A stretch of DNA of 64,000 bases from a virus (Duplodnaviria; Caudoviricetes), in IMG/VR virus record IMGVR_UViG_3300009031_000221, positions 160,001-224,000 of that record, one strand, 5' to 3'. The notes below the pieces were generated by a model. That model worked only from the letters and a program-made list of their open reading frames with translations. It was not told where the DNA came from and made no database searches. Both the position numbers and the translations under genes were made by a program. Below, piece by piece: positions 4,383-55,334 of the stretch. Each line of letters begins with the position of its first letter. The first letter of the stretch is position 1.

Positions 4383-4416
4383 GATTTCCTTCTACATCGA
4401 TGCCAAATGTCTAGCA

Positions 4417-6213: not shown

Positions 6214-6692
6214 TCTACAACCTCAGAAAAAGGTTCCATTTCAGCTTCAATCTGACGAACTTCCTCAGCTACGTCTACCCCATCCAAAACCCACATCAGG
6301 GCTGCCACGTCAGGATATTGAGAAGCGATCTTGCCCCGGTCATTGGAGGACATCAATTCACGAAATGCCGTCTTAACTTCTTCCTTGGTGCGGAAAGGTT
6401 GGCGACATTTGCATGCACGAGCTTGATTAATACACCCGGCAACCCGCGTATCACACACCTTTCCCCTTGGGGAGTTCTCCTTGATGGAACCCTCATAGCG
6501 GCAAATCCCGATCTTCTCCGAAGATCCTCCAATCCCAGTCAGATGATTGTAATAGCACGCCTCGGGGGATTCGCGAAAGTTGTCCCGAATCTCCCGTTGC
6601 AAATGCCTGAACAATACCTGCTTCAACTGTTGGCGAATCTGACTCGGAGATCGAGCGCCATTGTTATCAATTGGGTCCATGAGATTCTCCAA
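6210..6692 (-). CDS. Hypothetical Cys-containing protein
   Basis: ORF in operon; five or more Cys. Confidence 0.7.
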   Translation of the reverse strand: MENLMDPIDNNGARSPSQIRQQLKQVLFRHLQREIRDNFRESPEACYYNHLTGIGGSSEKIGICRYEGSIKENSPRGKVCDTRVAGCINQARACKCRQPFRTKEEVKTAFRELMSSNDRGKIASQYPDVAALMWVLDGVDVAEEVRQIEAEMEPFSEVVE

Positions 6693-6694
6693 GG

Positions 6695-7330
6695 TTACTT
6701 CAGCACCTCGAACTTTGCGTGCCCATTCTTCTTGGTAATTCGGTAAGCCTTGTCCGCAGCATCCACCATCGATGAATTATGCGATACCAAGAGAATATCC
6801 ATATCTAACCGTTTGCATAACGTCGATAGGAAATTCCCCATATTCGTAACATAGTTGTTGTCAAATGCGGGTAATGATTCATCTAACAGAAGTAGAGGGC
6901 GTAACCCTCGGCGCATGACGATGATGAGTCGCAACAACACAGACTGTACCGTTGATACAGCCCCCCCAAATGCGTCGTTGGACAACCCCTCAACCTCTGC
7001 GCCACCTGGATGCGTCTGCATGGTGATAAGGTCAACGGATACCTTGCCACGCTGTACTTCAACCTGAGCCTTGACCCTGATGTCTTGGTCATCAAATACA
7101 GCCTGCAAACCTTCGGTTTGTAGCTGTTCTACGGCCTGAACACCAACTGTCACTTCCTGGTCGATTAGCTGTCGTAGAAATGTTTCTACCGCATCCAGAA
7201 GAATGCCTTCCCCCTCTAATCGAGTAATGTCCTTCCGCACGCCACCAAGGCGTGCTACGGCATCATCTCGTAGAGTGCGAGCCTTTTCCAATGACGCACG
7301 CAAGGAGGCATAATTCGCGGATACCGACAT
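6695..7330 (-). CDS. Rad50/SbcC-family ATPase, C-terminal half
   Basis: Short coiled coil, signature-like AFGGA, Walker B LLLLDE, D-loop LPAFD, H-loop LVSH; no Walker A. Confidence 0.85.
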   Translation of the reverse strand: MSVSANYASLRASLEKARTLRDDAVARLGGVRKDITRLEGEGILLDAVETFLRQLIDQEVTVGVQAVEQLQTEGLQAVFDDQDIRVKAQVEVQRGKVSVDLITMQTHPGGAEVEGLSNDAFGGAVSTVQSVLLRLIIVMRRGLRPLLLLDESLPAFDNNYVTNMGNFLSTLCKRLDMDILLVSHNSSMVDAADKAYRITKKNGHAKFEVLK

Positions 7331-7331
7331 C

Positions 7332-8513
7332 CTACCACAACAAGCCCGCAAGCACGTGAACGTACTTGTCGCCGCCCTCACCCTTGTCATCCGCAAACAT
7401 CGGACGTTCAACGCGGATGTACCGATGCTTCTTCTCAGTGATCACGTTGATTCCCAACGTGATCGTGTCCGAAGTCGAACAACCCACCGTATCAATGATG
7501 TGGAGAAGATGGTCAGCGCTAACCGGAAAACCATCCTTCGGGATTTCGGGTGCCGTTGCCACATTGAGAACTGCCTCGCACTTCACCGAAACTACGGAAG
7601 GCTTGCCGTTCTCATTCTGCATCGATACCAAAAGGGGTCCGTCCTCATCGGGCAGGCTCAAGTACAGGCGCGAATCCTTCTTCGCAGCACCCGCCTGATT
7701 GGCCTCAACCGCACGCTTCAAGGCGTCCGTGTTGACAGTCCAAGTCCGTTGGTCTTCCGAAGGAGGAGGGCTTAGGTTCGGGTAGTTTGCCTGATAGCGG
7801 GTTTCACCGTAAGTCGCTCCATCACTCCGCTTCATGAACAGATTGCGGTCACTCTCCAGGATTTCGACATCTCCTTCACAGGATGCCAAGAATCCCGCCA
7901 AGCACGGCACGTCCTTGCTATGGATCCGCAAACCAGAGCTTTCCAACCCCACAACCTTGAAGAAGGATACAACGGAACGCTTATCCGTGGCCGTCACCAT
8001 CCCATTACGCACATCGACAACAACTGCCTCAGGCATATTGCTCTCGTCCAAGGATGCGAAGTTCCGTGCGCTCTTCAACGCAAACGCCAACCGACTGGCA
8101 CTCAATGAACCCTTGGAAACGGATTTCTCCAATGTCTTGTCCCAGAAAACAAAGTTCTGGGGATCCAAGGAACGGAAGTTCTGAACGTAGCTCCCGGTAT
8201 CGCACTTCACGTCGCCGCCGGCCTGCGGTTCCACCACCACAGCGGCGTCGCCAATCGTACCAAGCCACTTCTTGATCCGCCACCCCTCAACGGTGAAGGG
8301 ATCGCCAACTTCCATCACCTTTGCTTTGACTGGGCATGATGCGAATACCCGTTGGTGAGAAGTCAATACCTCAACCTGTTCCGCATCCTTGGGAGAAATA
8401 CGAAACAGGAAGTGCGAAGTAATATCGCCTTCGGTTGAAGACATCGCACCGGATACCGTCTGGAGTGCTTCCAAAAGGTCACTTTTTGCTACCTGAAACT
8501 TCATCATTATCAA
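7332..8513 (-). CDS. dnaN: DNA polymerase III beta sliding clamp-like protein
   Basis: MKFQVAKSDLLEALQTVS start, VTATDKR, YQANYPNL, clamp-like length, replisome context. Confidence 0.7.
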   Translation of the reverse strand: MIMMKFQVAKSDLLEALQTVSGAMSSTEGDITSHFLFRISPKDAEQVEVLTSHQRVFASCPVKAKVMEVGDPFTVEGWRIKKWLGTIGDAAVVVEPQAGGDVKCDTGSYVQNFRSLDPQNFVFWDKTLEKSVSKGSLSASRLAFALKSARNFASLDESNMPEAVVVDVRNGMVTATDKRSVVSFFKVVGLESSGLRIHSKDVPCLAGFLASCEGDVEILESDRNLFMKRSDGATYGETRYQANYPNLSPPPSEDQRTWTVNTDALKRAVEANQAGAAKKDSRLYLSLPDEDGPLLVSMQNENGKPSVVSVKCEAVLNVATAPEIPKDGFPVSADHLLHIIDTVGCSTSDTITLGINVITEKKHRYIRVERPMFADDKGEGGDKYVHVLAGLLW

Positions 8514-8782
8514 CGATCTCCCATGTATGGAGTAAGGGTTTGTTCCGACGCATCAATCCTGTTAGCAAGATCCTGCGTTAGGGTCTCGTAACGGCGAGTC
8601 AATTCCGTAATCGTCGCCTCTAACTTCTCTGGGGGCACACCCCGTTTCCGGCAATCATCTTCAACTAGGGACAATTCAGCCCTAGCAGATTCCAACCGCC
8701 CCTGAAGACGACTAGCCGTCTCTCGTACCCGATCCCGGCGTTTAACCAGTTCATCTAGTTTCACACGGCGTTCATCTACCAT
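8510..8782 (-). CDS. 90 aa coiled-coil protein (possible third Rad50 piece)
   Basis: Heptad-rich along its whole length. Confidence 0.6.
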   Translation of the reverse strand: MVDERRVKLDELVKRRDRVRETASRLQGRLESARAELSLVEDDCRKRGVPPEKLEATITELTRRYETLTQDLANRIDASEQTLTPYMGDR

Positions 8783-44090: not shown

Positions 44091-44531
44091 TTACTCCCCC
44101 TCTGTAGGAGGCCTGTGCTGGAGTGCCACCATGGTCATCATCTCATGAATGGTATCCGGGACTATAGCTGGAATGGTTGTCACAAGCATCTCTGTACAAG
44201 CGGCTGTCAATTCCTCTCGCATTGCAATTTGAGCCGCATCATCCCCAGCTAGATATCGAATAATCAGATCATTGTCCCGTGTCATTGCCGTCAGGATGCA
44301 CATATAAGCTTCCCGACGAAGTGCCTCCACAAGGAGTGCATGTGCTATTGCTCGAGTCCCCTTACCAGGCCATGAATCAAGCAATTCAGCATCGGCGCTT
44401 GATGCGGGTGTTTGATAAGACCAAATATGCCCCGTGAGATCCCGACATATCCGTACATTCAATGCGACGGTAGTTCCGGTAGGATGTTGTCCTGTAGGAG
44501 CCCATAATGCATCTGGGGGGATATTGCTCAT
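44091..44531 (-). CDS. Hypothetical protein
   Basis: Coupled to the groEL stop. Confidence 0.65.
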   Translation of the reverse strand: MSNIPPDALWAPTGQHPTGTTVALNVRICRDLTGHIWSYQTPASSADAELLDSWPGKGTRAIAHALLVEALRREAYMCILTAMTRDNDLIIRYLAGDDAAQIAMREELTAACTEMLVTTIPAIVPDTIHEMMTMVALQHRPPTEGE

Positions 44532-46174
44532 GGTTCATCCCGGAGTACGATTGCCGTTTCAACGGTGAGGATAGTAGCCGCCACGGATACTGCCGCTTTG
44601 ATTGTAGCAAGGGCAACAGCGGTCGGGTCCATAATCATGGGATCCACGGAAAAGTCCCGATAGGTTTCGGTCAAAGCATCCCATCCAACCCAACCGTATC
44701 CTGGGGTGTTCAAGTCATCGACTTTTGACCATGCATCCAGGACGTTGTATACAACAACAGTGCCCTCCTCACCGGCATTGTTGGCAATGACTTCAAGGGG
44801 ACGCATCAAAGCACGACGGACAATATTGCGCCCGTAGTCTTCCGCCGTGATACAATCCTTGTTCTGATATGTCCCCGTGTTGTTTAGCCTGATCCCATTG
44901 GACAATGCCGATGCTGCCCGCAGATAGGCGATTCCGCCTCCAGGCACAACACCATCGCGAAGAGCGGCACGGACGGAACCCAGGGCATCCTCAACACGGG
45001 CACGCCGTTCCTTGAGGGCTACTTCAGTAACACCTCCAATCTTGAGGATTGCCATGCCGCCAGACAACTTGGCGAGGCGTTCCTTGATCCGGTCACGGTC
45101 ATAGTCCGATGCGGAATGTTCTACCTGAGCCCGAAGGGTTGCAATTCGATCTTGTACGGCTTCCGTAGCCTCATCATGTGCAATCAAAAGGGTAGACTTG
45201 GGTTTGAATGTGATTTTCCGGAGCGACCCAAACCATTCAGGGTTCCATACCGTATGATCCAGCCCCGCATTAGGATCTACAAAGGTAGCTCCCGTGATAG
45301 CGGCAATGTCTTGAAGGTATTCCTCTTTACGGAACTGCAGCCCCGGTGCGCCAACCGCTACGGACTTCATGATATCCTTGACATCATTGACAACCATGGT
45401 TGTCAATGCGTCCCCTTCAGCAACCATGCAGAATACAACCAAAGGATTGTCGGGCCACTGGCTTGCAACCTCGAGCAAGTCCTGTACGTCTTCCAATGTA
45501 CGCAGGCGCCCATGGATGACTGCTACTAGAGGGTTGTCAATGACACGCTCGAGTTGATCCCCAAGGAATGCATCGCTACAAGGGCCTTGATCAAGCTCCA
45601 TGCCTTCTTTGAATTCCAGGGTGACTTCCATCCCGACACCATCTTCGATGGTTACGGTTCCGTCCTTGCCAACCGCCATGCATGCTTCCGCCATATTCTG
45701 TGCAACTTCTACGTCACCATTGCTGGCGAGCATTGCAATACGTTCAAGGTCGGCTTGATCCTTGATTTGATGTGTCATCCCACGAATGGCATCCATCGCC
45801 AAATCACGTGCGGCGAACATCCCACGGACGAGACCTCCAGGGTCTTGACCGCATGCAATCATCTTGTGCCCTTCCTGAAGCATTGAAGCCGTTAGGACTG
45901 CAACGGTTGTAGTTCCATCCCCAACCTCATTGTTCACAGCGATGCACGCTTCCTTGAGCATTTGACATCCCTGATTTTCAATGTGATCCTCAAGGGATAC
46001 TTCACGGGCTACCGTCACACCATCCTTGGTGGCAAGCATTCCGGCAAAGCGTTCCATGATACATGTGCGTCCGCCAGGGCCATAGGTGACTGCCACCGCT
46101 TGTGCGATCTTGTTCGCCCCCCGAAGTAAACGGGTTCGTGCGTCATTTCCGGTATAGATGTTTCGTGCGCTCAT
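44528..46174 (-). CDS. groEL: Chaperonin GroEL-like
   Basis: TYGPGGR, TKDGVTVA, GDGTTT, ERLAKLSGG, GVVPGGG, IMDPTAV. Confidence 0.97.
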   Translation of the reverse strand: MSARNIYTGNDARTRLLRGANKIAQAVAVTYGPGGRTCIMERFAGMLATKDGVTVAREVSLEDHIENQGCQMLKEACIAVNNEVGDGTTTVAVLTASMLQEGHKMIACGQDPGGLVRGMFAARDLAMDAIRGMTHQIKDQADLERIAMLASNGDVEVAQNMAEACMAVGKDGTVTIEDGVGMEVTLEFKEGMELDQGPCSDAFLGDQLERVIDNPLVAVIHGRLRTLEDVQDLLEVASQWPDNPLVVFCMVAEGDALTTMVVNDVKDIMKSVAVGAPGLQFRKEEYLQDIAAITGATFVDPNAGLDHTVWNPEWFGSLRKITFKPKSTLLIAHDEATEAVQDRIATLRAQVEHSASDYDRDRIKERLAKLSGGMAILKIGGVTEVALKERRARVEDALGSVRAALRDGVVPGGGIAYLRAASALSNGIRLNNTGTYQNKDCITAEDYGRNIVRRALMRPLEVIANNAGEEGTVVVYNVLDAWSKVDDLNTPGYGWVGWDALTETYRDFSVDPMIMDPTAVALATIKAAVSVAATILTVETAIVLRDEP

Positions 46175-46236
46175 GTTCCAATCCAAGGCAAGCGTGCCCA
46201 CATTGGAACAATACCCCGAAAAGGTGATCGGTAAGG

Positions 46237-47034
46237 CTACTGATAAGCTATGCGACCGATCCAACGTCCTGCAACACGGGATGCCGAGGAATTAGATGCT
46301 AAAACTGGAAATGCCCGATAGAATTCCTTGACCGCTTTCTTCCATTTGCCCGGTGCCAGCTTTTTCCACACTGCCATTTGTATGGAAGCAGTCCCTGCAA
46401 TCAATTTCATCAGGTAATCCCGTTGGTCCTGATCCTCCTCCACCCCTTTCAGGTGCTTCCGGGCTTGATTGATTATGTCGTTCAGTTGGGGATAGAATTC
46501 CACGTCATCCAATAGGTAATTCTCTTCGTAGGTCCTGCGGGAGTCATAAAGCTGAAGTGCCTGACTATGCTGGGGTGTCATGATGTGCTGGGAAGGCATT
46601 CCCGGTCGGGGAGCCACTGAATCCGAAAGCTTTGCCAAGTCCGCCATGAAGGACTGGGTTACGTGCTGTAGCTCATGCCTGACATCATCCGATAACCTAT
46701 CTACATCATGTTTGTATTTGAAACGCAGTATGATCGTCAGGTTATGGGTTTTCGGATCCCAAGTACCGGTTCCACGATCTTGAGCCTTCGCCACTCTCAC
46801 GATGACTTTGATAGCCTTCCATTCAGGGGGTAACTTCTTCAACGATTTGATTAGCGGGGATTCGGCATATCGCCACCCGATTAGATCCATTGGGAAAGTC
46901 CGAATTGCGGACTTGTTCATATTGGGTCCGAAGGCAGCCCGCCAATCAGCGTTTGCAGCCAACACCCATTCCGTGATGTCATTGACCATCGCGGGAGGAG
47001 GTTCTAGAAGTCCTGCATCTATTGATATGCTCAT
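46237..47034 (-). CDS. HExxH zinc-metallopeptidase-like protein with C-terminal RVAGRW motif
   Basis: VRHELQHVTQ...EFYP; SSASRVAGRWIGRIA. Confidence 0.65.
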   Translation of the reverse strand: MSISIDAGLLEPPPAMVNDITEWVLAANADWRAAFGPNMNKSAIRTFPMDLIGWRYAESPLIKSLKKLPPEWKAIKVIVRVAKAQDRGTGTWDPKTHNLTIILRFKYKHDVDRLSDDVRHELQHVTQSFMADLAKLSDSVAPRPGMPSQHIMTPQHSQALQLYDSRRTYEENYLLDDVEFYPQLNDIINQARKHLKGVEEDQDQRDYLMKLIAGTASIQMAVWKKLAPGKWKKAVKEFYRAFPVLASNSSASRVAGRWIGRIAYQ

Positions 47035-47243
47035 ATATCACTAGGAGGTTCGTGTGTTAGCGGTTCTAGCACGGAACTGAACTGAGGTGCATGAACCAGG
47101 AACGCGGCAATGCGTCGCCTCAGCACCCCGTCATCCGGAGGTCGACAACATGTCCCGGTAATCTGCTTCCGATACCTGCCTAGCTCAGGATTGGCACGGA
47201 TGACTGCCACGAACTGAGAGTAGAGTAACGTGATCGTATTCAT
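47031..47243 (-). CDS. Hypothetical protein
   Basis: Coupled ORF. Confidence 0.5.
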   Translation of the reverse strand: MNTITLLYSQFVAVIRANPELGRYRKQITGTCCRPPDDGVLRRRIAAFLVHAPQFSSVLEPLTHEPPSDI

Positions 47244-47857
47244 TAGGACACATAGACCAAGCAGCCAAACTTCCCGTTTTCCTTGCGATGAAACGTGAAA
47301 ACCAGCAATGAATTGATGATTCGGATGTTGGTGAATGGATCCGATGTCTTGAAAGCTAACTTCAAATTTGCTTGCCCGTCATCCGCACGGAAGATATGCG
47401 AATCAATGATGTCATCCACAACAATGTTGAATCCCGCTAGTACGTCCCAGGCAACGCTGTACCCTTGTTCCGCCTTATCAAAGGACTTGTTCTCATCTAA
47501 CCCTGCCAATCGAAACGCATTCCCAATCTGTCGTTTGATCCTTGGGTCCATCCGGTTAGGGGAAGCAGCAGTTCTCCCGGATGCAGAAGCTTCTACATCA
47601 AGAGATCGAGCGGCATGATCTAAAGTTCCCGTAGCCCGTTGCATGACATCTACGACTTTGTTAACATGGCCATTATCGTCAGCGATGGATCCGTAACCTT
47701 CCCCATGCCCACCTGGATGTCGTGCCGTCAATACCAGTACGGCATTTTCGATCAGGTTGTTCGCTTCACGGAGCTGATCCGCAGCCCAGTGAAGGTTATC
47801 CCTATCAGATGTATCCGCTTTTAGGTATCTAGTGGCTACTCGTTGGAATGATTTCAT
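47243..47857 (-). CDS. Hypothetical protein with N-terminal RVATRY motif
   Basis: MKSFQRVATRYLKA, internal RTAA. Confidence 0.7.
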   Translation of the reverse strand: MKSFQRVATRYLKADTSDRDNLHWAADQLREANNLIENAVLVLTARHPGGHGEGYGSIADDNGHVNKVVDVMQRATGTLDHAARSLDVEASASGRTAASPNRMDPRIKRQIGNAFRLAGLDENKSFDKAEQGYSVAWDVLAGFNIVVDDIIDSHIFRADDGQANLKLAFKTSDPFTNIRIINSLLVFTFHRKENGKFGCLVYVS

Positions 47858-47890
47858 CTTGTCCTCTCATGACGTACACCATGAGGAGAG

Positions 47891-47908
47891 GATAAGCGGG
47901 CTACCGAA
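47891..47908 (-). promoter_or_regulatory. Class B motif TTCGGT-N7-TTATC
   Basis: 34 nt upstream of 47857. Confidence 0.55.
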
Positions 47909-47986
47909 ACACGGATCCATTTGGTGTCATTTCTATAGGTTATGTAGAAGGGCGAAAAAAAAACGACTCGAGGGCTGGATGGTAGA

Positions 47987-48013
47987 CTTACTATTCGATT
48001 GGGATGCGTAGAT
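47987..48013 (+). promoter_or_regulatory. Class A phage promoter upstream of the tRNA leader
   Basis: CTTACT attcgattggga TGCGTAGAT. Confidence 0.75.
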
Positions 48014-48020
48014 AGAACAC

Positions 48021-48049
48021 TTGACAGCCGCACCGTGGAGGTGTAGGGT
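48021..48049 (+). promoter_or_regulatory. Sigma70 promoter TTGACA-N17-TAGGGT
   Basis: Perfect -35, 17-nt spacer, TANNNT -10. Confidence 0.75.
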
Positions 48050-48074
48050 GTTCAATGTGAGGACAAGAAACGTG

Positions 48075-48179
48075 ATGAAGACCTTAACCACATCCTTTAC
48101 CGAGCGCAGTACCGTGACAAAGGGCGAGTCCCTTACGTCATGGTATCTGTTGTCGCCCGAGGGGGTGGGAGGTCGCTGA
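48075..48179 (+). CDS. 34 aa leader peptide MKTLTTSFTERSTVTKGESLTSWYLLSPEGVGGR (putative attenuator)
   Basis: GAGG RBS at 48059; overlaps the antiterminator strand; codons match the downstream tRNA anticodons. Confidence 0.8.
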   Translation: MKTLTTSFTERSTVTKGESLTSWYLLSPEGVGGR

Positions 48180-48202
48180 ACGATTGAATCGTCTGCACCT
48201 TG

Positions 48203-48243
48203 AAACCCTCTCCGGCAACGCCCGAGAGGGTTTTCGCGTTTCT
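48203..48243 (+). terminator. Intrinsic terminator/attenuator hairpin
   Basis: AAACCCTCTC (48203-12) / GAGAGGGTTT (48224-33), inner GGC/GCC, followed by T-rich TCGCGTTTCT. Confidence 0.85.
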
Positions 48244-48244
48244 A

Positions 48245-48281
48245 GGGCCTTCGCGGCCCGCTGAACTTTGACAACTGAATA
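48245..48281 (+). promoter_or_regulatory. boxB-like hairpin plus rrn-type boxA-like element
   Basis: GGGCC-ttcgc-GGCCC then GAACTTTGACAACTGAATA, resembling rRNA-leader boxA. Confidence 0.6.
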
Positions 48282-48342
48282 CGTTGTATCTTCGTGCCGG
48301 GGACACCCGTCTTAGGACGTAATGGTGTCCCCGGCACGCGAT

Positions 48343-48426
48343 GCCCGGGTGATGAAACTGGTAGACTTCCCTGTCTCAGAAGCAGGGGCTCGTAAGGGCG
48401 TGCGGATTCGACTTCCGCCTCGGGCA
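48343..48426 (+). tRNA. tRNA-Leu(CAG)
   Basis: Cloverleaf, loop CT CAG AA, long variable arm, A73. Confidence 0.9.
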
Positions 48427-48452
48427 CTATGGTAGATTTGGCTACCGACAAC

Positions 48453-48535
48453 GGGGGTATTGGGCAGGTGGTGAGCCCAATTGACTGTAAATCAATCGCC
48501 TTTCGGCTGTGGTAGTTCGATTCTACTTGCCCCCA
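48453..48535 (+). tRNA. tRNA-Tyr(GTA)
   Basis: Loop CT GTA AA, long variable arm. Confidence 0.9.
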
Positions 48536-48543
48536 CCTAATAG

Positions 48544-48572
48544 TTGACAGGCTTGCGAAACTCCCATACCAT
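48544..48572 (+). promoter_or_regulatory. Sigma70 promoter TTGACA-N17-TACCAT for the HNH gene
   Basis: Directly upstream of ATG 48578. Confidence 0.75.
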
Positions 48573-48577
48573 GAGGT

Positions 48578-49117
48578 ATGAGAAATACGCCCTATCCCGA
48601 GATACCTTGTGAATACTGCAAAAATCCTTTTTCCCCAAAGGATCCTCGATCCCGGTACTGTTCGCTATCTTGTGCCGGAAAGGTCGTTGGTCGTCGTCGG
48701 ATTATTTCTGATGAAACAAGGGTTAAAATGGCAGTTGCCCGGAAAACCTTCTGGGATAATCACGATAATCCGCAGAAGGGCAATCCAGACCACGCTCAAG
48801 CCGTGGGTCAAAGTACAAAGGGTAAATACAAGAAAAACCCGGCATCTATTTTGGATCTCAGTTCTCGCACGGTGCGTAAACTGTTACAACGGATCAATCC
48901 TGGGTGCTCAAGATTCCAATGTGGATGGAAAGAAGGTATAGGAGACATTCACCATATCAACGGGAGGAAGGTGGCAGATGCAAATGGGCACTGGAATTTA
49001 TCCTATCTATGCCCTAATTGCCATCGTTTAGTACATGAAGGCAAGGTTCCCAAAGATGAATTGGTCACAATTCAAACCCAATTGGGAGAAACTTGGTTCG
49101 ATCATTATTACGGGTGA
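48578..49117 (+). CDS. HNH homing endonuclease within the tRNA array
   Basis: CEYC...YCSLSC; DIHHING...NLSYLCPNCHRLVH. Confidence 0.88.
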   Translation: MRNTPYPEIPCEYCKNPFSPKDPRSRYCSLSCAGKVVGRRRIISDETRVKMAVARKTFWDNHDNPQKGNPDHAQAVGQSTKGKYKKNPASILDLSSRTVRKLLQRINPGCSRFQCGWKEGIGDIHHINGRKVADANGHWNLSYLCPNCHRLVHEGKVPKDELVTIQTQLGETWFDHYYG

Positions 49118-49129
49118 TCGAATCCCCAC

Positions 49130-49210
49130 GGCACCATTGAGCAAAGGCCGCTCGTGACTCTGTAAAAGTCATCTTTCACCGGGGAGGTGGTTCGATACCA
49201 CCTGGTGCCA
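49130..49210 (+). tRNA. tRNA-Tyr(GTA), second copy
   Basis: GGCACCA/TGGTGCC acceptor, loop CT GTA AA. Confidence 0.85.
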
Positions 49211-49263
49211 CCCCGGGTTCCTGGACTAATCCGAAAGGTTCAAAATCCAGGAACCCGTATAAT

Positions 49264-49356
49264 GGATCCGTGGCCGAGAGGCTTATGGCGCTCGTTTCGA
49301 AAACGAGATGTCGGTGATGAGCCGGCACACAGGTTCAAATCCTGTCGGATCCGCCA
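49264..49356 (+). tRNA. tRNA-Ser(CGA)
   Basis: Loop TT CGA AA, long arm, G73, CCA. Confidence 0.92.
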
Positions 49357-49423
49357 ACGTCTGCTATGTTGCAACAGGGAAGCAATACCTCCGGGTATGT
49401 CGGGTTCGAATCCCGAGGCGTTA
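49357..49423 (+). pseudogene. Degenerate tRNA-like element
   Basis: Intact T-arm TCGGG-TTCGAAT-CCCGA and partial acceptor; no valid anticodon arm. Confidence 0.5.
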
Positions 49424-49427
49424 TTAT

Positions 49428-49517
49428 GGAGATGTGGCCGAGCCCGGCTTATGGCGTCAGTCTTGAAAACTGAAGGGTGTAAAAGCTCCAGGGGTTCGAA
49501 TCCCTTCGTCTCCGCCA
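49428..49517 (+). tRNA. tRNA-Ser(TGA)
   Basis: Loop CT TGA AA, G73, CCA. Confidence 0.92.
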
Positions 49518-49529
49518 GTGTCTAACCAA

Positions 49530-49622
49530 GGAAGCGTACCCAAGTGGTTAAGGGGGCGGTTTGCTAAACCGTTAGGTCGTCTAGAAAACGGCGCGTGGGT
49601 TCAATCCCCACCGCTTCCGCCA
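49530..49622 (+). tRNA. tRNA-Ser(GCT)
   Basis: Loop TT GCT AA, G73, CCA. Confidence 0.92.
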
Positions 49623-49631
49623 GTGTCCGAT

Positions 49632-49719
49632 GTCATCGTGGGGAAATTTGGTAGACCCATTAGCTTGAGGTGCTAACGCTCGCAAGGGCATACGGGTTCG
49701 ACTCCCGTCGATGACACCA
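49632..49719 (+). tRNA. tRNA-Leu(GAG)
   Basis: Loop TT GAG GT, long arm, CCA. Confidence 0.9.
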
Positions 49720-49826
49720 GTTCATAGGATAAGTGTTGAACATATGTGTGAAGCGGGCGCCCGTAAATCACACGGATAATCCGTCCTGATAGTATCGGGA
49801 AAATTCAGGTCAAACCCTGATGAGCT
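49720..49826 (+). ncRNA. tRNA-like structured RNA with an expanded middle
   Basis: GTTCA/TGAGC closing stem, T-like arm TCAGG-tcaaac-CCTGA, two internal 6-bp stems. Confidence 0.45.
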
Positions 49827-49831
49827 AAAAT

Positions 49832-49923
49832 GGAAACGTCGTCTAGTGGCCGAGGGCACCCGCTTGGAAAGCGGGCGATCATGTAAAAGTGGTCCGGGAG
49901 TTCGAATCTCCCCGTTTCCGCCA
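49832..49923 (+). tRNA. tRNA-Ser(GGA)
   Basis: Loop TT GGA AA, G73, CCA. Confidence 0.92.
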
Positions 49924-49935
49924 GTGTGTAAGAAT

Positions 49936-50007
49936 GCCCCTATCCGCTAGTGGTTAGGCGACCGGATTCTCAATCCGTCAACATCGGTTCAAATCCGATT
50001 AGGGGCA
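49936..50007 (+). tRNA. tRNA-Glu(CTC)
   Basis: Loop TT CTC AA. Confidence 0.88.
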
Positions 50008-50020
50008 CTGAGTAAATAAT

Positions 50021-50091
50021 GGGTTGGGTGCTGGGCACGGATTGGTCTCCAAAACCGATCTTCGAGGGTTCGATTCCCTCCCTTCTCGCCA
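50021..50091 (+). tRNA. tRNA-Trp(CCA), atypical
   Basis: Loop CT CCA AA, normal T-arm, CCA; very small D-arm and two U-U mismatches in the acceptor. Confidence 0.7.
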
Positions 50092-50092
50092 T

Positions 50093-50235
50093 GAGGGGTA
50101 CGCCAAACGGATTGGCACAAGCATTGAAAACTTGAAAACAGTAAACATGCTTCACAACTCGTCAACATTCCTTCGGGAATGCCGACAATCAGTTAAGCAC
50201 ACACGCAATAGTAGGTTCGACTCCTACACCCCCCA
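50093..50235 (+). ncRNA. 143-nt tRNA-like RNA with about 75-nt insertion in the variable region
   Basis: Acceptor GAGGGGT/ACCCCCC, D-stem GCCA/TGGC, T-arm GTAGG-TTCGACT-CCTAC, internal UUCG hairpin. Confidence 0.6.
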
Positions 50236-50421
50236 CTAATTCGGATCCGGCAATGATTCAAATAGGATTTCACCGTCCTCGCGGAGCCATGCAATGACAT
50301 GACCCGAAAGTACTAGATTAATCAATGCCTGATCAATTTCAGGAGTAGCTGAAGGTGGCAAGGCCCTTAGATGGGCAACGGCATCTTCTACGGAGATAGG
50401 TTCAAGAGTCAAAGGGGGCAT
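50236..50421 (-). CDS. Small protein encoded antisense inside the tRNA array
   Basis: 61 aa, GAGGTG RBS, fills a tRNA-free gap exactly. Confidence 0.6.
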   Translation of the reverse strand: MPPLTLEPISVEDAVAHLRALPPSATPEIDQALINLVLSGHVIAWLREDGEILFESLPDPN

Positions 50422-50450
50422 ATCGGCACCTCAGAGATATTGTACCATAT

Positions 50451-50524
50451 GCTTGGGTAGCTCAGCAGGTAGTAGCACTAGACTGAAAATCTAGGTGTCG
50501 TCGGTTCAATTCCGACCCCAAGCA
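50451..50524 (+). tRNA. tRNA-Phe(GAA)
   Basis: Loop CT GAA AA. Confidence 0.9.
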
Positions 50525-50538
50525 CTTGAATTGTAAAT

Positions 50539-50614
50539 GCTTCATTAGCTTTGATGGTCAAAGCGTCGGCTTGAAACCCCGAAGAATTCCGTTCGATACG
50601 GAGATGGAGCACCA
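50539..50614 (+). tRNA. tRNA-Phe(GAA)
   Basis: Loop TT GAA AC, C-C mismatch closing the anticodon stem, CCA. Confidence 0.8.
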
Positions 50615-50690
50615 TCGAATGTCGTAGTTCAACGGTAGAACTGGGACTGAACGTCTTGCATGAGGGATTCAATCGCCCTCCGCATTCGAG
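50615..50690 (+). pseudogene. Degenerate tRNA (Phe-GAA-like)
   Basis: Acceptor and D-arm present, weak anticodon stem (loop CT GAA CG), 9-nt T-loop. Confidence 0.55.
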
Positions 50691-50693
50691 TTG

Positions 50694-50762
50694 TTTGGAA
50701 GTGCCCGGTGGCAGGGCGGCGGTGTGATACCGTGTGGGATGGTTCGATTCCATCATCCAAAG
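50694..50762 (+). pseudogene. Degenerate tRNA with a 5-nt anticodon loop
   Basis: D-arm GCCC/GGGC, stem GCGGT-gtgat-ACCGT, intact T-arm. Confidence 0.55.
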
Positions 50763-50769
50763 TTTCTAA

Positions 50770-50842
50770 GCCCGGATAGCTCAGTTGGTAGAGCGGAAGC
50801 CTGAAGAGCTTCGCGTCGGCGGTTCAACTCCGTCTCCGGGCG
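50770..50842 (+). tRNA. tRNA-Phe(GAA)
   Basis: Loop CT GAA GA, canonical cloverleaf. Confidence 0.92.
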
Positions 50843-50847
50843 CTGAT

Positions 50848-50932
50848 GGGGATGTGGGCTGTCAAGGAGAATTGGCACATCCGGCAGACTTAAAATCTGC
50901 CGCCTTTGAGGGTTCGAATCCCTTTGTCCTCA
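50848..50932 (+). tRNA. tRNA-Leu(TAA), atypical
   Basis: Loop CT TAA AA, short variable region, enlarged D region. Confidence 0.65.
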
Positions 50933-50947
50933 CTGTAGTGGTAAAAT

Positions 50948-51021
50948 GCTGGGGTAGCCCAATTGGCAGAGGCAATAGGTTTAGGCCCTATACGGTGTGG
51001 GTTCGAATCCCATCTTCAGCA
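50948..51021 (+). tRNA. tRNA-Leu(TAG), short variable arm
   Basis: Loop TT TAG GC, 5-nt variable loop, A73. Confidence 0.85.
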
Positions 51022-51033
51022 CTAGAACACTAT

Positions 51034-51108
51034 GCAAGCGTAGCCCAATTGGCAGGAGGCAACAGTTTCAAAAGCTGTGCAGTGTGGGTTCGAATCCCAT
51101 CGCTTGTA
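51034..51108 (+). tRNA. tRNA-Leu(CAA), short variable arm
   Basis: Loop TT CAA AA, 5-nt variable loop, A73. Confidence 0.85.
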
Positions 51109-51120
51109 CCGTAACTTAAT

Positions 51121-51204
51121 GCAATCGTGGCGGAACGGTCTACGCAGGGGTCTCAAAAACCCCCGGTCTAAAAAACCTTGTGAGTTCGAATCTCACCGAT
51201 TGCA
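51121..51204 (+). tRNA. tRNA-Leu(CAA), long variable arm
   Basis: Loop CT CAA AA. Confidence 0.9.
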
Positions 51205-51237
51205 CTTTCAATAGTGCGGCTATTAGCCCTACATGAT

Positions 51238-51885
51238 ATGGCTACTATTCCATCAAAAGAGCATTTAGCTAATCTATACCAGATCCTTTCGGATTCGGCA
51301 ATTGCCGAATCCTTTTCGGTAAGTCCTGCGACTGTTCTCCGTTGGCGGAGACATTACGGCATTCTATCTAAACCGAGAGGTCCAAGGGCGATTTCGGGGC
51401 AATTGAGTTTCCGGGATATATCAGACGAGGCAATCAAAGCAGCGATCCCAATGTGTTTCTCAGTGATGGAGGTATGCCGTAAAGTCGGTCTATGTGAAAC
51501 GGGACAAGGGCACACCAAAATGAAAGTGAAGATTTCCCATCTAGGGGTAGATACTTCACATTTTGGAACACAACACCCTCGTACATTAGGTCTGAAGGGA
51601 TACCAGCAATCCCTTCAGAGCCTATTAGTTGAAGGGTCTATTGCCCAGTCCAACAAGTTGAAACAGAGATTGCTGAAGGAGGGCATTCTGGCAGAAGAAT
51701 GTTCTCAATGTTATTGTTTGCCGGTATGGTTAGGCAAGCCCTTGACGTTGCAACTTGATCATATCAGTGGTGATTCTACGGATAATAGATTGGGTAATCT
51801 TCGTCTCCTTTGCCCCAATTGTCACTCGCAAACGGTAAACTATGCGGGTAGAAACAAATCTAGATCAGATAAGGCGCATCCATGA
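51238..51885 (+). CDS. HNH homing endonuclease with N-terminal HTH
   Basis: IAESFSVSPATVLRWRR; LQLDHISGDSTDNRLGNLRLLCPNCHSQT. Confidence 0.9.
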   Translation: MATIPSKEHLANLYQILSDSAIAESFSVSPATVLRWRRHYGILSKPRGPRAISGQLSFRDISDEAIKAAIPMCFSVMEVCRKVGLCETGQGHTKMKVKISHLGVDTSHFGTQHPRTLGLKGYQQSLQSLLVEGSIAQSNKLKQRLLKEGILAEECSQCYCLPVWLGKPLTLQLDHISGDSTDNRLGNLRLLCPNCHSQTVNYAGRNKSRSDKAHP

Positions 51886-52577
51886 ACCGAAATTTCCTTG
51901 TCCCAGAAATCAAGCAACACGCTAACCAAGACGAACAGAAGTTGGAACAACAACGGGTTGATGCCGTTGTGATTGCCATCGACCCTTGGTTCCGTGAACA
52001 GTCCGCATTGACGGCGCTTGACTACATGGAAGAAATGGGCATTGCCAACGTGGCAGCAGCCCCGGTCATGGTAGCCCGAACCGGAACGGCTCAAGGAGAA
52101 TTCCAGAAGCGGTTGGAAAGTCTGGCGGACATGAACTTTACTACCGTTACGGAATACCACGAATACCTTGACGAGATTGTGCATCGTCGAGAGAAGGGGT
52201 CAACCCTGATTCAGTGGGAATCGGAAAGCCTCGTCGGCTTCGTAGACCATGAGAAGGATTATCGTGTTGTGATTGCCATTCAGGATATTCGTCGCAGTCG
52301 TAGAGAAGCGAAGAATGACCCGCGTCTCATGGAAATCTACGAGAGTTTGGCCAAGCCCCTCCACCTGGAGGATGCTGCCGCAGTAATTGGTTCTAGCTGG
52401 TCTCCCGGCACTCGAGCATACATCCTTGGCCCCGCTGAGTACGGACTTCAGGCGGGATTCATCGATGACGATGTTGTGCAAACACCTCTTACGAATGATG
52501 TGTGGGACTCGGATTCGATTGTAGGTTCCTTCGCAAAGGAAGTGCCTGAGATTGGCGGGGAACGCCCCGTGAGATAG
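51882..52577 (+). CDS. Hypothetical acidic protein
   Basis: 231 aa, coupled to the HNH stop. Confidence 0.7.
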   Translation: MNRNFLVPEIKQHANQDEQKLEQQRVDAVVIAIDPWFREQSALTALDYMEEMGIANVAAAPVMVARTGTAQGEFQKRLESLADMNFTTVTEYHEYLDEIVHRREKGSTLIQWESESLVGFVDHEKDYRVVIAIQDIRRSRREAKNDPRLMEIYESLAKPLHLEDAAAVIGSSWSPGTRAYILGPAEYGLQAGFIDDDVVQTPLTNDVWDSDSIVGSFAKEVPEIGGERPVR

Positions 52578-52581
52578 CCAC

Positions 52582-52653
52582 GCCGTTGTAGTTCAGTGGC
52601 AGAACGCGACTTTCGTACAGTCGATGTCGGGGGTTCGATTCCCTCCTACGGCT
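52582..52653 (+). tRNA. tRNA-Thr(CGT)
   Basis: Loop TT CGT AC. Confidence 0.88.
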
Positions 52654-52726
52654 CTGTTGACAAAGCTCGTGTACCATGTGTACAAGGAGTTCCGGTGCCG
52701 TCCTTACAAGGGGCGGCACCAGCGTT

Positions 52727-52799
52727 GCCCGCATAGCTCAGTTGGAAGAGCACCTCATTTGTAACGAGGTGGTCGGGAGTTCGATTCTCTCTGTGGGCA
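52727..52799 (+). tRNA. tRNA-Thr(TGT)
   Basis: Loop TT TGT AA. Confidence 0.92.
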
Positions 52800-52811
52800 C
52801 TGTTTCTATAT

Positions 52812-52883
52812 GCTTCAGTATTTCAGTGGCAGAAGCCTTCCTTGGTAAGGAAGTGGTCGTGGGTTCGATCCCCACCTGAAGCT
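52812..52883 (+). tRNA. tRNA-Thr(GGT)
   Basis: Loop TT GGT AA. Confidence 0.9.
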
Positions 52884-52893
52884 CCGTTTCTAA

Positions 52894-52966
52894 GGCCTTG
52901 TCGTCTAACGGTTAGGACATAGCCCTCTCAAGGCTAGAACGCGGGGTTCAAATCCCCCCAAGGTCA
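52894..52966 (+). tRNA. tRNA-Glu(CTC), second copy
   Basis: Loop CT CTC AA. Confidence 0.88.
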
Positions 52967-52986
52967 CTTAAACCCTAGAGGTAATC

Positions 52987-53532
52987 ATGTCCATTCTTGC
53001 AGTTGATGTGTCCTACCAAGAGGATGTTGCCCAAGTCGCGGGCGTCCTGATTGAAAAATGGGAAGACACTGCAATCATTCAATCACACGTATTCACGATG
53101 CCCTGTCCTGCCCCCTATGAACCTGGGGCATTCTACAAGCGGGAACTTCCATGCATTCTAGCTTTGTTGGATCGCATGAAGGCCCCAGGGGTGATTAATC
53201 CAGAAAAGCCCGACTTCATCATCATTGATGGCTATGTGGACTTGGGCAAAGACCATCCCGGTTTGGGAAGGCACCTAGTAAATGCCCTCGGGCATGCCAA
53301 TGTCATTGGGGTTGCCAAGACAGCATTCAAAGATGCTCCTCACAAGGAGTGCCTTCGTGGCAAGAGCAAGAATCCTCTGTACATTACATCTGCCGGGGTT
53401 AGCGTGCACTTGGCAGATGTAGCTATCCGACTCATGCACGGACCCTATCGCATCCCCACTATTCTCAAGGAAGTAGATAGGCTAAGCCGCAGCCCAATGG
53501 AAGTGGCCCGGACGGACGAGGGGCTGGTTTGA
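52987..53532 (+). CDS. nfi: Endonuclease V family
   Basis: AVDVSY, YEPGAFYKRELP, IIIDGY, GLGRHL, IGVAKT. Confidence 0.9.
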   Translation: MSILAVDVSYQEDVAQVAGVLIEKWEDTAIIQSHVFTMPCPAPYEPGAFYKRELPCILALLDRMKAPGVINPEKPDFIIIDGYVDLGKDHPGLGRHLVNALGHANVIGVAKTAFKDAPHKECLRGKSKNPLYITSAGVSVHLADVAIRLMHGPYRIPTILKEVDRLSRSPMEVARTDEGLV

Positions 53533-53587
53533 AAACTAGCATGATGCGATAAGCGTCACAAGGGTTCGATTCCCTTTGCTTCCGCCA
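53499..53587 (+). pseudogene. Degenerate tRNA-Ser(TGA) overlapping the 3' end of nfi
   Basis: Long arm, T-arm, G73, CCA; anticodon loop not 7 nt; 5' acceptor/D region irregular. Confidence 0.6.
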
Positions 53588-53607
53588 GATACAACGTATT
53601 CAGATGA

Positions 53608-54117
53608 TCAATGCTTTCGCAGCAATGGCACAATATGCTTACGGAGTTCTGGTTTAGCCGTAGCGAGGCGGATCAGGTTATGCCGCAGGCTAGACGCCAT
53701 GAAGTCCCGATTGCTAACACCATGATATTTACTAGGGTTCGACGAATATTCTGCGTTTTCCCGTAAATCTTCTAGCGCATCCTCAAATGCTTCATGGGCT
53801 TCGCGTTCACTGACGGCCTTTTGCATGGCTTCGCGAATTGCGGATTCTAGATCCTTCGTGAATTGCGGCGTGTCCTCTCCATTATCGAAGACCTCTTCGA
53901 CGGCATCCGATTCAGATTTAGCGGATGTCAGGTGTTTGGCTACCTTGTCTAGCATCCATTCTGTTGCATCAAATCCATGGAAGAAGACCCGCCAGCCCTC
54001 CCATCTAGAAGCTGTGTCGGTTTCCCTCTGGATCAAAGGAATGATGGCAGCCTTGAACTTTGGGTCGTGAGGCAAGGCACGTTCAAGGGCAACAATGGTG
54101 GGATCTGGCTGTGGCAT
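53608..54117 (-). CDS. Hypothetical protein with C-terminal LRHNLIRLA...PELRKHIVPLL motif
   Basis: ORF with GGAGG RBS and class B-like motif upstream. Confidence 0.7.
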   Translation of the reverse strand: MPQPDPTIVALERALPHDPKFKAAIIPLIQRETDTASRWEGWRVFFHGFDATEWMLDKVAKHLTSAKSESDAVEEVFDNGEDTPQFTKDLESAIREAMQKAVSEREAHEAFEDALEDLRENAEYSSNPSKYHGVSNRDFMASSLRHNLIRLATAKPELRKHIVPLLRKH

Positions 54118-54141
54118 GGTATTCCTCCAACGACAAGTGCC

Positions 54142-54159
54142 GATAGAAGGAATACCATA
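54142..54159 (-). promoter_or_regulatory. Class B-like motif TATGGT-N7-CTATC
   Basis: 25 nt upstream of 54117. Confidence 0.4.
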
Positions 54160-54163
54160 AGGG

Positions 54164-54607
54164 CTAGAGCAGCTTCAGTAGCCCCGTGATCTTATCGATG
54201 GATTCGGCTTCTGCGGGACCGATTGCCAAGGCAGTCCAAGTCGGGACGCCATGGAACTCTGTGAAGCCGCTGTCTTGGATAGCGGCACAGGGCAAGCCCG
54301 CGGCCAGGGCAATGTCTCGGAGGGCGAGGAATTCATCTTCCGATCCAATCCCAACGCAAATCTTGGTGAATGAACCGTCTAGCCATTGCTGCATGGCGGA
54401 TGACATACGCAGCATGAATGCCCGTTCCTCATCTTCCATGAGTTCGGCAGTCTGGCAAAACGTGTAGCCTTCCCATTTACGGTTGGCAAACCCGTAGCTC
54501 CCGGCATCCAACAGAACCTTCATGCTGGCATGTGCTGCCTGAGCGCACATCTTGCCCTTACGCATGTTGAGATCCGTGCGAAGTACGATGACCTGTTTTA
54601 CTGGCAT
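54164..54607 (-). CDS. pth2: Peptidyl-tRNA hydrolase, Pth2 family
   Basis: KQVIVLRTDLNMRKGKMCAQAAHA, KICV, IQDSGFTE, TALAIGP. Confidence 0.95.
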   Translation of the reverse strand: MPVKQVIVLRTDLNMRKGKMCAQAAHASMKVLLDAGSYGFANRKWEGYTFCQTAELMEDEERAFMLRMSSAMQQWLDGSFTKICVGIGSEDEFLALRDIALAAGLPCAAIQDSGFTEFHGVPTWTALAIGPAEAESIDKITGLLKLL

Positions 54608-54613
54608 GGTGTC

Positions 54614-54898
54614 CTAATCGTCGGTAGAGAACCGGTATGAATATTCAGAGGCTAGCTGAAATACTTCATCCCGTTCTTCTTTCGTCAGGTCTACTGATTC
54701 CCTCGTATCCACGCGAGTGGTTGCCAATGGAATCAGTATACCGGGGCTGGCCGCAGTCAGCTGAAAGCTATCAGGGTAACGGTATTCAAACGTTGCTTGA
54801 ATGGTTGGGGCGTCGGCTTCGAGGGATTCCCTCTCGAATTGCACTGACACAATGGTACGCTTGTCAGCTGAGCGTGAGTGGGTTGTATGTGATCGCAC
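54614..54898 (-). CDS. Hypothetical protein
   Basis: GGAG RBS; class A promoter upstream. Confidence 0.6.
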   Translation of the reverse strand: MRSHTTHSRSADKRTIVSVQFERESLEADAPTIQATFEYRYPDSFQLTAASPGILIPLATTRVDTRESVDLTKEERDEVFQLASEYSYRFSTDD

Positions 54899-54921
54899 TG
54901 GTAGACTCCTGTATGATATCT

Positions 54922-54948
54922 ATCTACGCATCCTATCGTTGAAGTAAG
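54922..54948 (-). promoter_or_regulatory. Class A phage promoter
   Basis: CTTACT tcaacgatagga TGCGTAGAT; drives orf54898-pth2. Confidence 0.75.
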
Positions 54949-55334
54949 CCTGCGGTTTGTTCGCGTTGGATTGCATCTGGCCCCTGATTCAGATCGAGGC
55001 AAATCTGATCAATGGCTGCCAATACTTGATCTCGATTAGAACCCGTAGCGATGGAAAACGACAACCCTTTATAGTTGTTTGCCATAATCCGGTACAGCGG
55101 CCTATCATAGACATGGTACCTGTGCCTGCCTGTCCACTGGTAATCTTGCTTGCCCAGCCACATGATCAGGACGCTGACTATACCGGGCTTGGACATGAGG
55201 GACGCCGTCTTGGATACGTACCTATGAACATCCATCAAGCGCTTGACGCTATCATCATCATTGAAAACGAAGTTGAGGATATCGGACATATCGCGTGATT
55301 CCAATCGTTCCGTATTGTTCTTCCAAGTACTCAT
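54933..55334 (-). CDS. Hypothetical protein
   Basis: Coupled to the vWA stop. Confidence 0.65.
   Translation of the reverse strand: MSTWKNNTERLESRDMSDILNFVFNDDDSVKRLMDVHRYVSKTASLMSKPGIVSVLIMWLGKQDYQWTGRHRYHVYDRPLYRIMANNYKGLSFSIATGSNRDQVLAAIDQICLDLNQGPDAIQREQTAGLLQR

Follow-up and report, generated by a model that had tools for sequence, protein, structure and literature searches.

The closest described systems to the one reported here are the multivalent leader-peptide attenuators that serve amino-acid operons in enterobacteria, among them ilvGMEDA (Ile, Leu and Val), thrL (Thr and Ile), trpL, hisL, pheL and leuL, and the T-box riboswitches of Firmicutes, transfer RNA (tRNA)-sensing leaders found on amino-acid and aminoacyl-tRNA synthetase genes. 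To our knowledge, it is not known how phages control large tRNA arrays, nor how any organism fits tRNA synthesis to codon-by-codon decoding demand. The locus described here lies in a 64,000-nucleotide (nt) stretch of DNA, called the window below, that comprises positions 160001-224000 of virus record IMGVR_UViG_3300009031_000221 (Duplodnaviria; Caudoviricetes), a 536,053-bp virus genome rated complete by CheckV. We hold with good confidence that its leader region, 201 nt long (48050-48250 of the window), is a ribosome-mediated leader-peptide transcription attenuator placed ahead of a phage tRNA operon.

The regulated array occupies 48343-53586 on the plus strand, as delimited with ARAGORN, Rfam and Pfam, and has HNH and endonuclease V (EndoV) genes interspersed. 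ARAGORN finds 21 tRNAs and one odd tRNA-like gene in it, amounting to 16 anticodon types: six Leu, four Ser, three Thr, three Phe, two Tyr, two Glu-CUC and one Trp, with no other amino acids. Between promoter and array lies a leader open reading frame (ORF) of 34 codons, running from ATG at 48075 to TGA at 48179, recognized by both sequence and conservation. It may instead begin at an in-frame GTG (48072-48179, plus strand), which lines up with the GTG starts of two homologs. A ribosome-binding site, GAGGAC (48059-48064, plus strand), precedes the GTG by 7 nt and the ATG by 10 nt. An earlier note, made from the letters alone, had correctly placed the 34-codon ORF and its ribosome-binding site ahead of the 21 tRNAs. 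The sensing part of the leader, codons 2-27, consists almost entirely of Thr, Ser, Leu, Phe, Glu (as GAG), Trp and Tyr codons, so that the leader is enriched in codons relevant to its regulation, as a mixed set and not as runs of a single amino acid.

The codon match was scored with wobble rules in which G34 reads C and U, C34 reads G, U34 reads A and G, and A34 reads U, C and A, and was compared with 20,000 random windows of equal length taken from 388 long ORFs of the same phage genome. Array tRNAs read 22 of the 33 sense codons after the start, against a background fraction of 0.31 (P <= 5e-5). All 16 anticodon types have a codon in the leader when wobble is allowed, and 11 have one under strict Watson-Crick pairing (both P <= 5e-5). 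The proposal in the earlier note that the leader codons mirror the array is thus borne out.

Related phages were located through GroEL, both in viral contigs and in a large protein collection with contig look-ups, the protein collection giving 771 GroEL homologs at E <= 1e-100. A DNA similarity search of the region against a phage collection gave no match, and a 204-residue neighbour protein used as query returned its own contig alone. Nine related contigs (L003, L004, L011, L017, L018, L019, L020, L021 and L088), with GroEL 47-75% identical to that of the window phage, carry a syntenic array of the same amino-acid set; L088 is visibly AT-richer. L022 has a leader identical to that of L011 and the same tRNA order, and no syntenic array was found in L012/G004 or L089, whose GroEL is more distant. 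Each relative has a promoter, an ORF of 29-35 codons whose stop lies 23-31 nt ahead of the terminator arm, and an array that begins with Leu-CAG or Leu-GAG. The syntenic leader ORFs are all on the minus strand of their loci, at 6836-6931 (L003), 5876-5977 (L004), 8597-8698 (L011), 6974-7075 (L017), 7453-7545 (L018), 7498-7596 (L019), 4317-4409 (L020), 6428-6535 (L021) and 8579-8671 (L088). As in the window's leader, Thr, Ser, Leu, Phe, Trp, Tyr and Glu are abundant in them, and Shine-Dalgarno (SD)-like motifs stand ahead of most of them. In nine other contigs, then, homologous arrays have kept a translatable and codon-matched ORF and not the hairpin alone.

We call leaders of this kind A-type, and a second, non-homologous kind B-type. 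The B unit lies outside the window, upstream of a 27-tRNA array that begins with His; its ORF is on the minus strand at G000 259618-259785 (equivalent to L015 16618-16785), where G000 is the window phage's genome. The region (G000:C1:259394-260200; L015 16394-17200) contains TTGACA, AGGAG, a 55-codon ORF, a terminator, a CTTTGACAACTGAAT motif and a long stem. The B leader is composed of Gly, His, Arg, Gln, Lys, Val, Ala, Ile, Pro, Met, Glu (GAA), Asn and Asp codons, and these are the amino acids of the B array (His, Asn, Pro, Gly, Ile, Gln, Arg, Lys, Asp, Ala, Val, Glu-UUC and Met). A complete relative, G001, carries a B unit as well (L013 17641-17793, minus strand), while the B array of G003 is incomplete, cut by the end of its contig. 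Within a genome, the codons of the A leader are decoded chiefly by tRNAs of array A and those of the B leader by tRNAs of array B (Fisher test, 3.9e-5 in the window phage's own genome and 7.5e-6 in G001). A third array (genome 224559-234659) has the phage promoter motif only and no leader of its own. A scan of viral contigs for the B-type leader pattern (GGTGCC, a gap, GCCGGGCACCGA) returned 65 stretches, all attributed to chance except G001 itself.

In most units the leader covers its own array completely or nearly so. Among A-type units the leader has codons for 16/16 anticodon types in the window and for 15/15, 13/13, 16/16, 13/14, 18/18, 16/16, 17/17 and 17/17 in relatives; the B-type leaders cover 22/22 and 28/29. 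Judged by the random windows, P for such coverage is 5e-5 to 5e-4 in the A-type units and 0.004 and 0.0007 in the two B-type ones. Array-read codons make up a fraction of 0.52-0.79 of the leader, depending on the unit, compared with backgrounds of 0.24-0.36 (P <= 5e-5 for most). The match is concentrated in the sensing parts, where 253 of 319 codons are array-read, as opposed to 23 of 66 in the structural 3' parts (P = 5e-12). The codon match is lost over the last five to seven codons, which is explained by the end of the ORF being a near copy of the terminator 3' arm, as detailed below.

Leaders and arrays also change together. The L011 array includes Arg-ACG, Arg-UCG and Arg-CCG and no Glu tRNA, and the leader ahead of it includes CGC, CGA and CGG and no GAG. 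L003 and L004 have Arg-CCG in their arrays and CGG in their leaders, and L018 and L021 have Glu-UUC beside Glu-CUC in the arrays and GAA beside GAG in the leaders. L021 has a Met tRNA in its array and an internal AUG in its leader. A UGG codon in the L011 leader pointed to a Trp tRNA that ARAGORN had overlooked and that was found by Rfam alone. When leaders and arrays were re-paired at random, a mean of 5.1 anticodons were left uncovered, compared with 1 observed (P = 0.004), and fewer codons were decoded (P = 0.003). This supports a co-variation of leader codons with array anticodons, which the earlier note had proposed as a test. L017, the closest relative of the window, differs from it in the sensing part mostly by codon changes that do not leave the sensed set, and has TTG-CTG where the window has CTG-TTG.

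A different account of these leaders would be that the ORF, under its own promoter and terminator, encodes a conserved small Thr/Ser/Leu-rich protein, that the array has an independent promoter farther downstream, whose -35 element would be CTTTGACAA, and that the codon match merely follows from the composition of the peptide. The A-type leaders are indeed alignable peptides with a common core such as TTFSE...LSSWYLL.PE, and a TTGACA-containing motif lies downstream of the terminator in most units. However, the B-type leaders, which are not homologous to them, are complementary in composition and cover their own array just as thoroughly. The differences between the window leader and that of L017 are mostly swaps inside the sensed set, with the CTG/TTG order flipped and both codons kept. 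The C-terminus of the peptide is set by complementarity to the terminator arm and varies with that arm, and in none of the units does a -10 element follow the downstream TTGACA. We consider this explanation very unlikely.

The RNA of the leader region folds much better than shuffled sequences (z = -5.6). A terminator hairpin, AAACCCTCTC...GAGAGGGTTT, is predicted at 48203-48233 with a free energy (dG) of -18.5 kcal/mol, between the leader and the tRNA genes, and is followed by TCGCGTTTC. A strict consensus terminator scan omits it, its loop and U tract being beyond the scan's rules. Within the ORF, TGTTGTCG (48148-48155) pairs with 48213-48220, and GAGGGGGT (48159-48166) pairs with 48205-48212. 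RNAduplex finds exactly these segments as the best duplex between ORF and terminator arm (dG -21.8; ORF nt 74-93, 10 nt before the stop). We divide the plus strand accordingly into four regions. Region 1, the anti-antiterminator strand, lies within codons 2-8 (48080-48097) and is defined by its pairing with 48159-48174 in the minimum free energy (MFE) structure. Region 2 (48148-48174), defined by duplex and MFE prediction, consists of the last ORF codons and has two alternative partners, region 1 and the terminator 5' arm. Region 3 (48203-48220) is that arm with the loop; the antiterminator duplex, too, makes use of 11 of its 13 stem nucleotides. Region 4 (48221-48243) is the terminator 3' arm plus an interrupted U tract (TTTTCGCGTTTC). 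Both the hairpin and the antiterminator exclusive with it had been placed at these positions by the earlier note. Its third pairing, GGGCGA with TCGCCC as a 1:2 stem, is absent from the MFE structure, where the predicted anti-antiterminator is instead 48080-48097 with 48159-48174. In the MFE structure of the whole leader, the terminator stands apart from this stem.

The same layout recurs wherever it could be assessed, that is, in 11 switch units (the window, eight A-type relatives and two B-type units) or in 12 with L088 included. In 11/11 units the best duplex of the 5' untranslated region plus ORF with the terminator 5' arm involves the last part of the ORF and ends 0-10 nt short of the stop, where a ribosome at the stop codon could mask its 5' strand. 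Leader-arm duplexes have dG of -16.6 to -29.2 kcal/mol, and terminators -18 to -33 kcal/mol, in these units. Mutual exclusion is built into all 12 units, in which 8-12 of the 10-15 terminator-arm nucleotides are also used by the antiterminator duplex, and in which the strand at the ORF end is a near copy of the terminator 3' arm. Regions 2, 3 and 4 change jointly: the window has CCCTCTC, L019 has CCCTCCCC, the AT-rich L088 has TCCTTCGG and the B units have GGCCGGGCACC. The pairs were listed unit by unit; a MAFFT alignment of the segments from region 2 to the terminator was out of register and was not used. Antiterminator and terminator arms thus vary together across units, which is the compensatory change in the stems that the earlier note had proposed as a test.

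One might suppose, conversely, that the leader is an untranslated structured 5' element, active in processing or stability or as a small RNA, in which the open frame is incidental. In favour of this are the strong folding of the 201-nt region relative to shuffles and the long stems immediately ahead of the first tRNA. Yet the frame stays open for 29-35 codons in ten diverged genomes, with SD-like motifs, three stop codons and a spacing of 23-31 nt to the terminator arm, and it is codon identity that is conserved and not the nucleotides, as in the switches between TCN and AGY for Ser and between TTR and CTN for Leu. Nor does any Rfam family match: a cmscan of 46000-55000 at E <= 1 returned tRNA-type matches only, with none in 48021-48342 and no T-box or other known leader family. 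We regard an untranslated element as the least probable of the alternatives weighed here, and most unlikely.

Attenuation by a translating ribosome predicts that the position of the ribosome should decide between the two structures. We modeled a stalled ribosome by leaving RNA free to fold only from 12 nt beyond the A-site codon, at equilibrium. In the window, a stall at codons 3-25 gives a terminator probability of 0.02-0.30, except for 0.69 at Trp23; once the ribosome occupies codons 26-34 or the stop, the value is 0.95-0.96. This footprint-constrained fold, which the earlier note had suggested, therefore favours the antiterminator for stalls at codons 3-25 and the terminator for a ribosome farther along. 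With no ribosome, the terminator probability computed for the window is 0.86, and the region 1:2 pair is present in the MFE structure. L020, L018 and G001_B switch as the window does. Separately, in the MFE structure of 48050-48250 the start-codon region (48066-48075) pairs with about 48233-48242, the U-tract region past the terminator; this might block initiation on terminated transcripts or be incidental.

Several observations weigh against ribosome-mediated attenuation, or against its completeness. In 7/11 units the terminator wins at equilibrium at every ribosome position, with a small step once region 2 is covered, and for these seven we therefore assume a kinetic, co-transcriptional advantage, as for trp, where the 2:3 pairing forms before region 4 appears. 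In the window, codons 25-27 are the sole exact cognates of Leu-CAG, Leu-CAA and Ser-CGA and lie so close to region 2 that a stall there may favour termination instead. The U tract after the window's terminator is interrupted. The promoter and SD rules of the host may differ from those assumed here. The conserved CTTTGACAA past the terminator is a candidate -35 element of a promoter that would bypass the switch. The ten A-type leaders, of the window and nine relatives, are homologous peptides and not independent samples. With the peptide held fixed and synonymous codons redrawn, the match is modest (P = 0.03-0.24 per unit); Fisher's combination of these gives 0.001, from homologous units that are not independent. 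Coverage has gaps and surpluses: the L088 leader covers just 9/11 anticodon types, Arg-UCG in the L019 array has no leader codon, two CGC codons in the window leader and CGA plus CGG in that of L021 occur with no Arg tRNA in the array, and Asn and Gln codons in the L011 leader have no matching tRNAs. Finally, a sequencing-run lookup found DNA of this phage in groundwater metagenome runs only, with 0 RNA runs.

Some of these points would fit a translated decoding sensor whose output is something other than terminator read-through, for instance Rho access, RNase processing, or loading of an antitermination complex at a boxA-like site. The interrupted U tract in many units, the boxA-like motif and processing-type stems past the terminator, and the persistence of the terminator at equilibrium in seven units all lean that way. 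Against it, the three-way covariation of regions 2, 3 and 4 and the fixing of region 2 at the stop codon are what a terminator/antiterminator switch needs, and several units have canonical U tracts (7 U in L003, 9 U in G001_B). Such an output seems unlikely to us, if less so than either of the other two alternatives.

The ORF, its conservation, the codon match, the covariation and the alternative pairings were obtained by computation; translation, termination, read-through and the physiological trigger we infer. In the attenuation mechanism that we propose, transcription would start at the sigma-70-like promoter (48021-48049), at the phage motif (47982-48015), or at both, and a ribosome would translate the 34-codon leader, meeting at least one codon for each anticodon type encoded downstream. 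If decoding is fast, the ribosome would reach the last codons or the stop and cover region 2 (48148-48174), the terminator at 48203-48233 would form, and transcription would stop before the tRNAs. If decoding is slow at any sampled codon, the ribosome would stall upstream with region 1 unwound and region 2 free. Region 2 would then pair with the emerging terminator 5' arm, and RNA polymerase would read into the 21 tRNA genes. Without a ribosome, region 1 would pair with region 2 and the terminator would form. The second unit (genome 259618-259785, minus strand) would control the His/Asn/Pro/Gly/Ile/Gln/Arg/Lys/Asp/Ala/Val/Glu-UUC/Met array. The tRNA products would speed decoding of the leader and would therefore exert negative feedback on the supply of exactly these tRNAs. 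The earlier note conjectured that host tRNA depletion or anticodon nucleases would be the trigger; slow decoding in nature could arise from mismatch with host codon usage, from loss of host tRNAs during infection, or from anticodon nucleases.

The two promoters upstream of the leader are both found where the earlier note had put them (47987 and 48021), the first belonging to a common promoter-like signal of this phage. This signal, GTAGACTTAC ... GCGTAGATAG (47982-48015, plus strand), was recognized as a genome-wide pattern: CTTAC, 12-16 nt and GCGTAGAT are found in this order about 100 times across the 536 kb, and most copies stand 40-70 nt ahead of a start codon. Here the CTTAC/GCGTAGAT motif starts at 47987, and it is also found upstream of the L017 and L020 leaders; from its sequence and distribution it is likely the phage's own promoter class. 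Its form is (G)ACTTACTTTC, about 9 nt, and GCGTAGAT(A/G); a small hairpin and an AAGGAAC ribosome-binding site usually come next. The sigma-70-like candidate, assigned by sequence, has TTGACA at 48021-48026, a 17-nt spacer and TAGGGT at 48044-48049 (plus strand). Its -10 element is weak, and a strict promoter scan omits the site. TTGACA, a spacer of 16-17 nt and TAnnnT recur at the equivalent position in the homologous units for which upstream sequence was read. In the B unit of the window phage's genome, TTGACA is present and the -10 is weak.

Past the terminator, sequence and comparison with relatives define a further element (48245-48338, plus strand) made up of a small hairpin at 48245-48259, a boxA-like CTTTGACAACTGAAT at 48266-48280, and a 15-bp stem at 48293-48338 that abuts the first tRNA. 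Each of the four close copies of CTTTGACAACTGAAT in the genome (208266+, 259472-, 253728- and 234474-) sits within a tRNA array and on the same strand as that array. Most relatives have retained the motif, L017 and L020 have it in the form CTTTGAAAAC, and L011 lacks it; in G001 an HNH gene stands between the B-unit terminator and the boxA-like motif. Judged by its resemblance to the boxA consensus, CTTTGACAACTGAAT may be either a boxA-like site or the -35 of an internal promoter. In most relatives the terminator tail consists of the stem, a T run, a short spacer and GTTT; canonical U tracts occur, as noted, and many units have interrupted ones.

The array lies on the plus strand with minus-strand genes on both sides, including a GroEL homolog at 44528-46264, and 47858-48342 is therefore a divergent control region. 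The whole genome has 68 tRNA genes and one transfer-messenger RNA (tmRNA), and the amino acids missing from the array in the window are covered by two minus-strand arrays farther along the genome. No extra leader was found ahead of the Thr/Glu tRNA group at 52582. Genes between the array tRNAs, at 48578-49117, 51214-51885 and 52987-53532, encode HNH endonucleases and an endonuclease V homolog; the gene at 48578 has its own sigma-70-like promoter at 48544. A hairpin at 51291-51312, returned by the terminator scan, lies within the helix-turn-helix region of an HNH gene and was judged incidental. The odd tRNA-like gene at 53498-53586 has a 4-nt anticodon (tgaa) according to ARAGORN and a weak, sub-threshold tRNA-Sec-type match in Rfam (32 bits). 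Another tRNA-like gene, at 50093-50235, is about 150 nt long with a large insert, and the element is conserved within the arrays of several relatives (L018 4251-4403, L017 3687-3839 and L004 3422-3573), where Rfam tRNA matches span about 150 nt. Elsewhere in the genome, a suppressor-type tRNA with anticodon UUA, reading UAA, lies distant from the arrays (G000:C1:483473-483562, minus strand). The tmRNA is found at G000:C1:225791-226190 (minus strand), within a minus-strand array, and in L003 and L004 a tmRNA occurs within or beside the A-type array.

Taken more broadly, we think it likely that in this megaphage clade a near-complete tRNA complement is placed under two or more complementary test ORFs, each sampling essentially every isoacceptor of its own operon and driving a terminator/antiterminator switch, in a self-tuning arrangement that would also report loss of host decoding, be it from codon-usage mismatch or because tRNAs are depleted or cleaved. 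As far as is known, attenuation would here control tRNA genes, and a leader would act as a multiplexed codon panel, for the first time. Full-text literature searches turned up no account of tRNA genes under leader-peptide control, either in phages or in bacteria; an attenuator-like sequence may lie upstream of the E. coli tRNA-Phe genes (pheU/pheV), which serves as a lead only. If the interpretation is correct, ribosome-mediated attenuation reaches beyond amino-acid metabolism to the translation apparatus, and the sorting of phage tRNA genes into arrays by amino acid is explained, one array being one regulon with one sensor. The leader would also be a compact natural multiplexed sensor of decoding speed, usable to report tRNA availability or anticodon-nuclease activity. 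It makes a prediction that can be tested in a cell-free system, namely that changing one leader codon should let a different tRNA shortage open the operon.

The comparison with known systems can now be drawn. Like a T-box, the phage unit is predicted to sense the state of the tRNA pool and to choose between terminator and antiterminator. A T-box, however, does so without translation, binding one uncharged tRNA through a specifier codon and the T-box sequence, whereas the phage unit has a many-codon ORF that would be translated; the specifier loop, T-box sequence and stem I (RF00230) were not detected by the Rfam scan. With the enterobacterial attenuators the unit has in common, as predicted, a short translated ORF carrying the regulatory codons, an intrinsic terminator, ribosome position as the signal, and an antiterminator with its 5' strand in the last part of the ORF; in the window, a predicted region 1:2 pairing may likewise give termination in the untranslated state. 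It differs from them in what it would regulate, which is tRNA genes (with HNH and EndoV) and not genes for biosynthesis, transport or synthetases. Where the enterobacterial leaders use runs of one to three amino acids, the phage leaders sample seven (A-type) or about 14 (B-type), and in general each isoacceptor encoded downstream has one or more codons in them. By speeding up decoding the products would act directly on the sensor, a form of product feedback, and the whole is phage-encoded, with two complementary units that split the tRNA genes between them.

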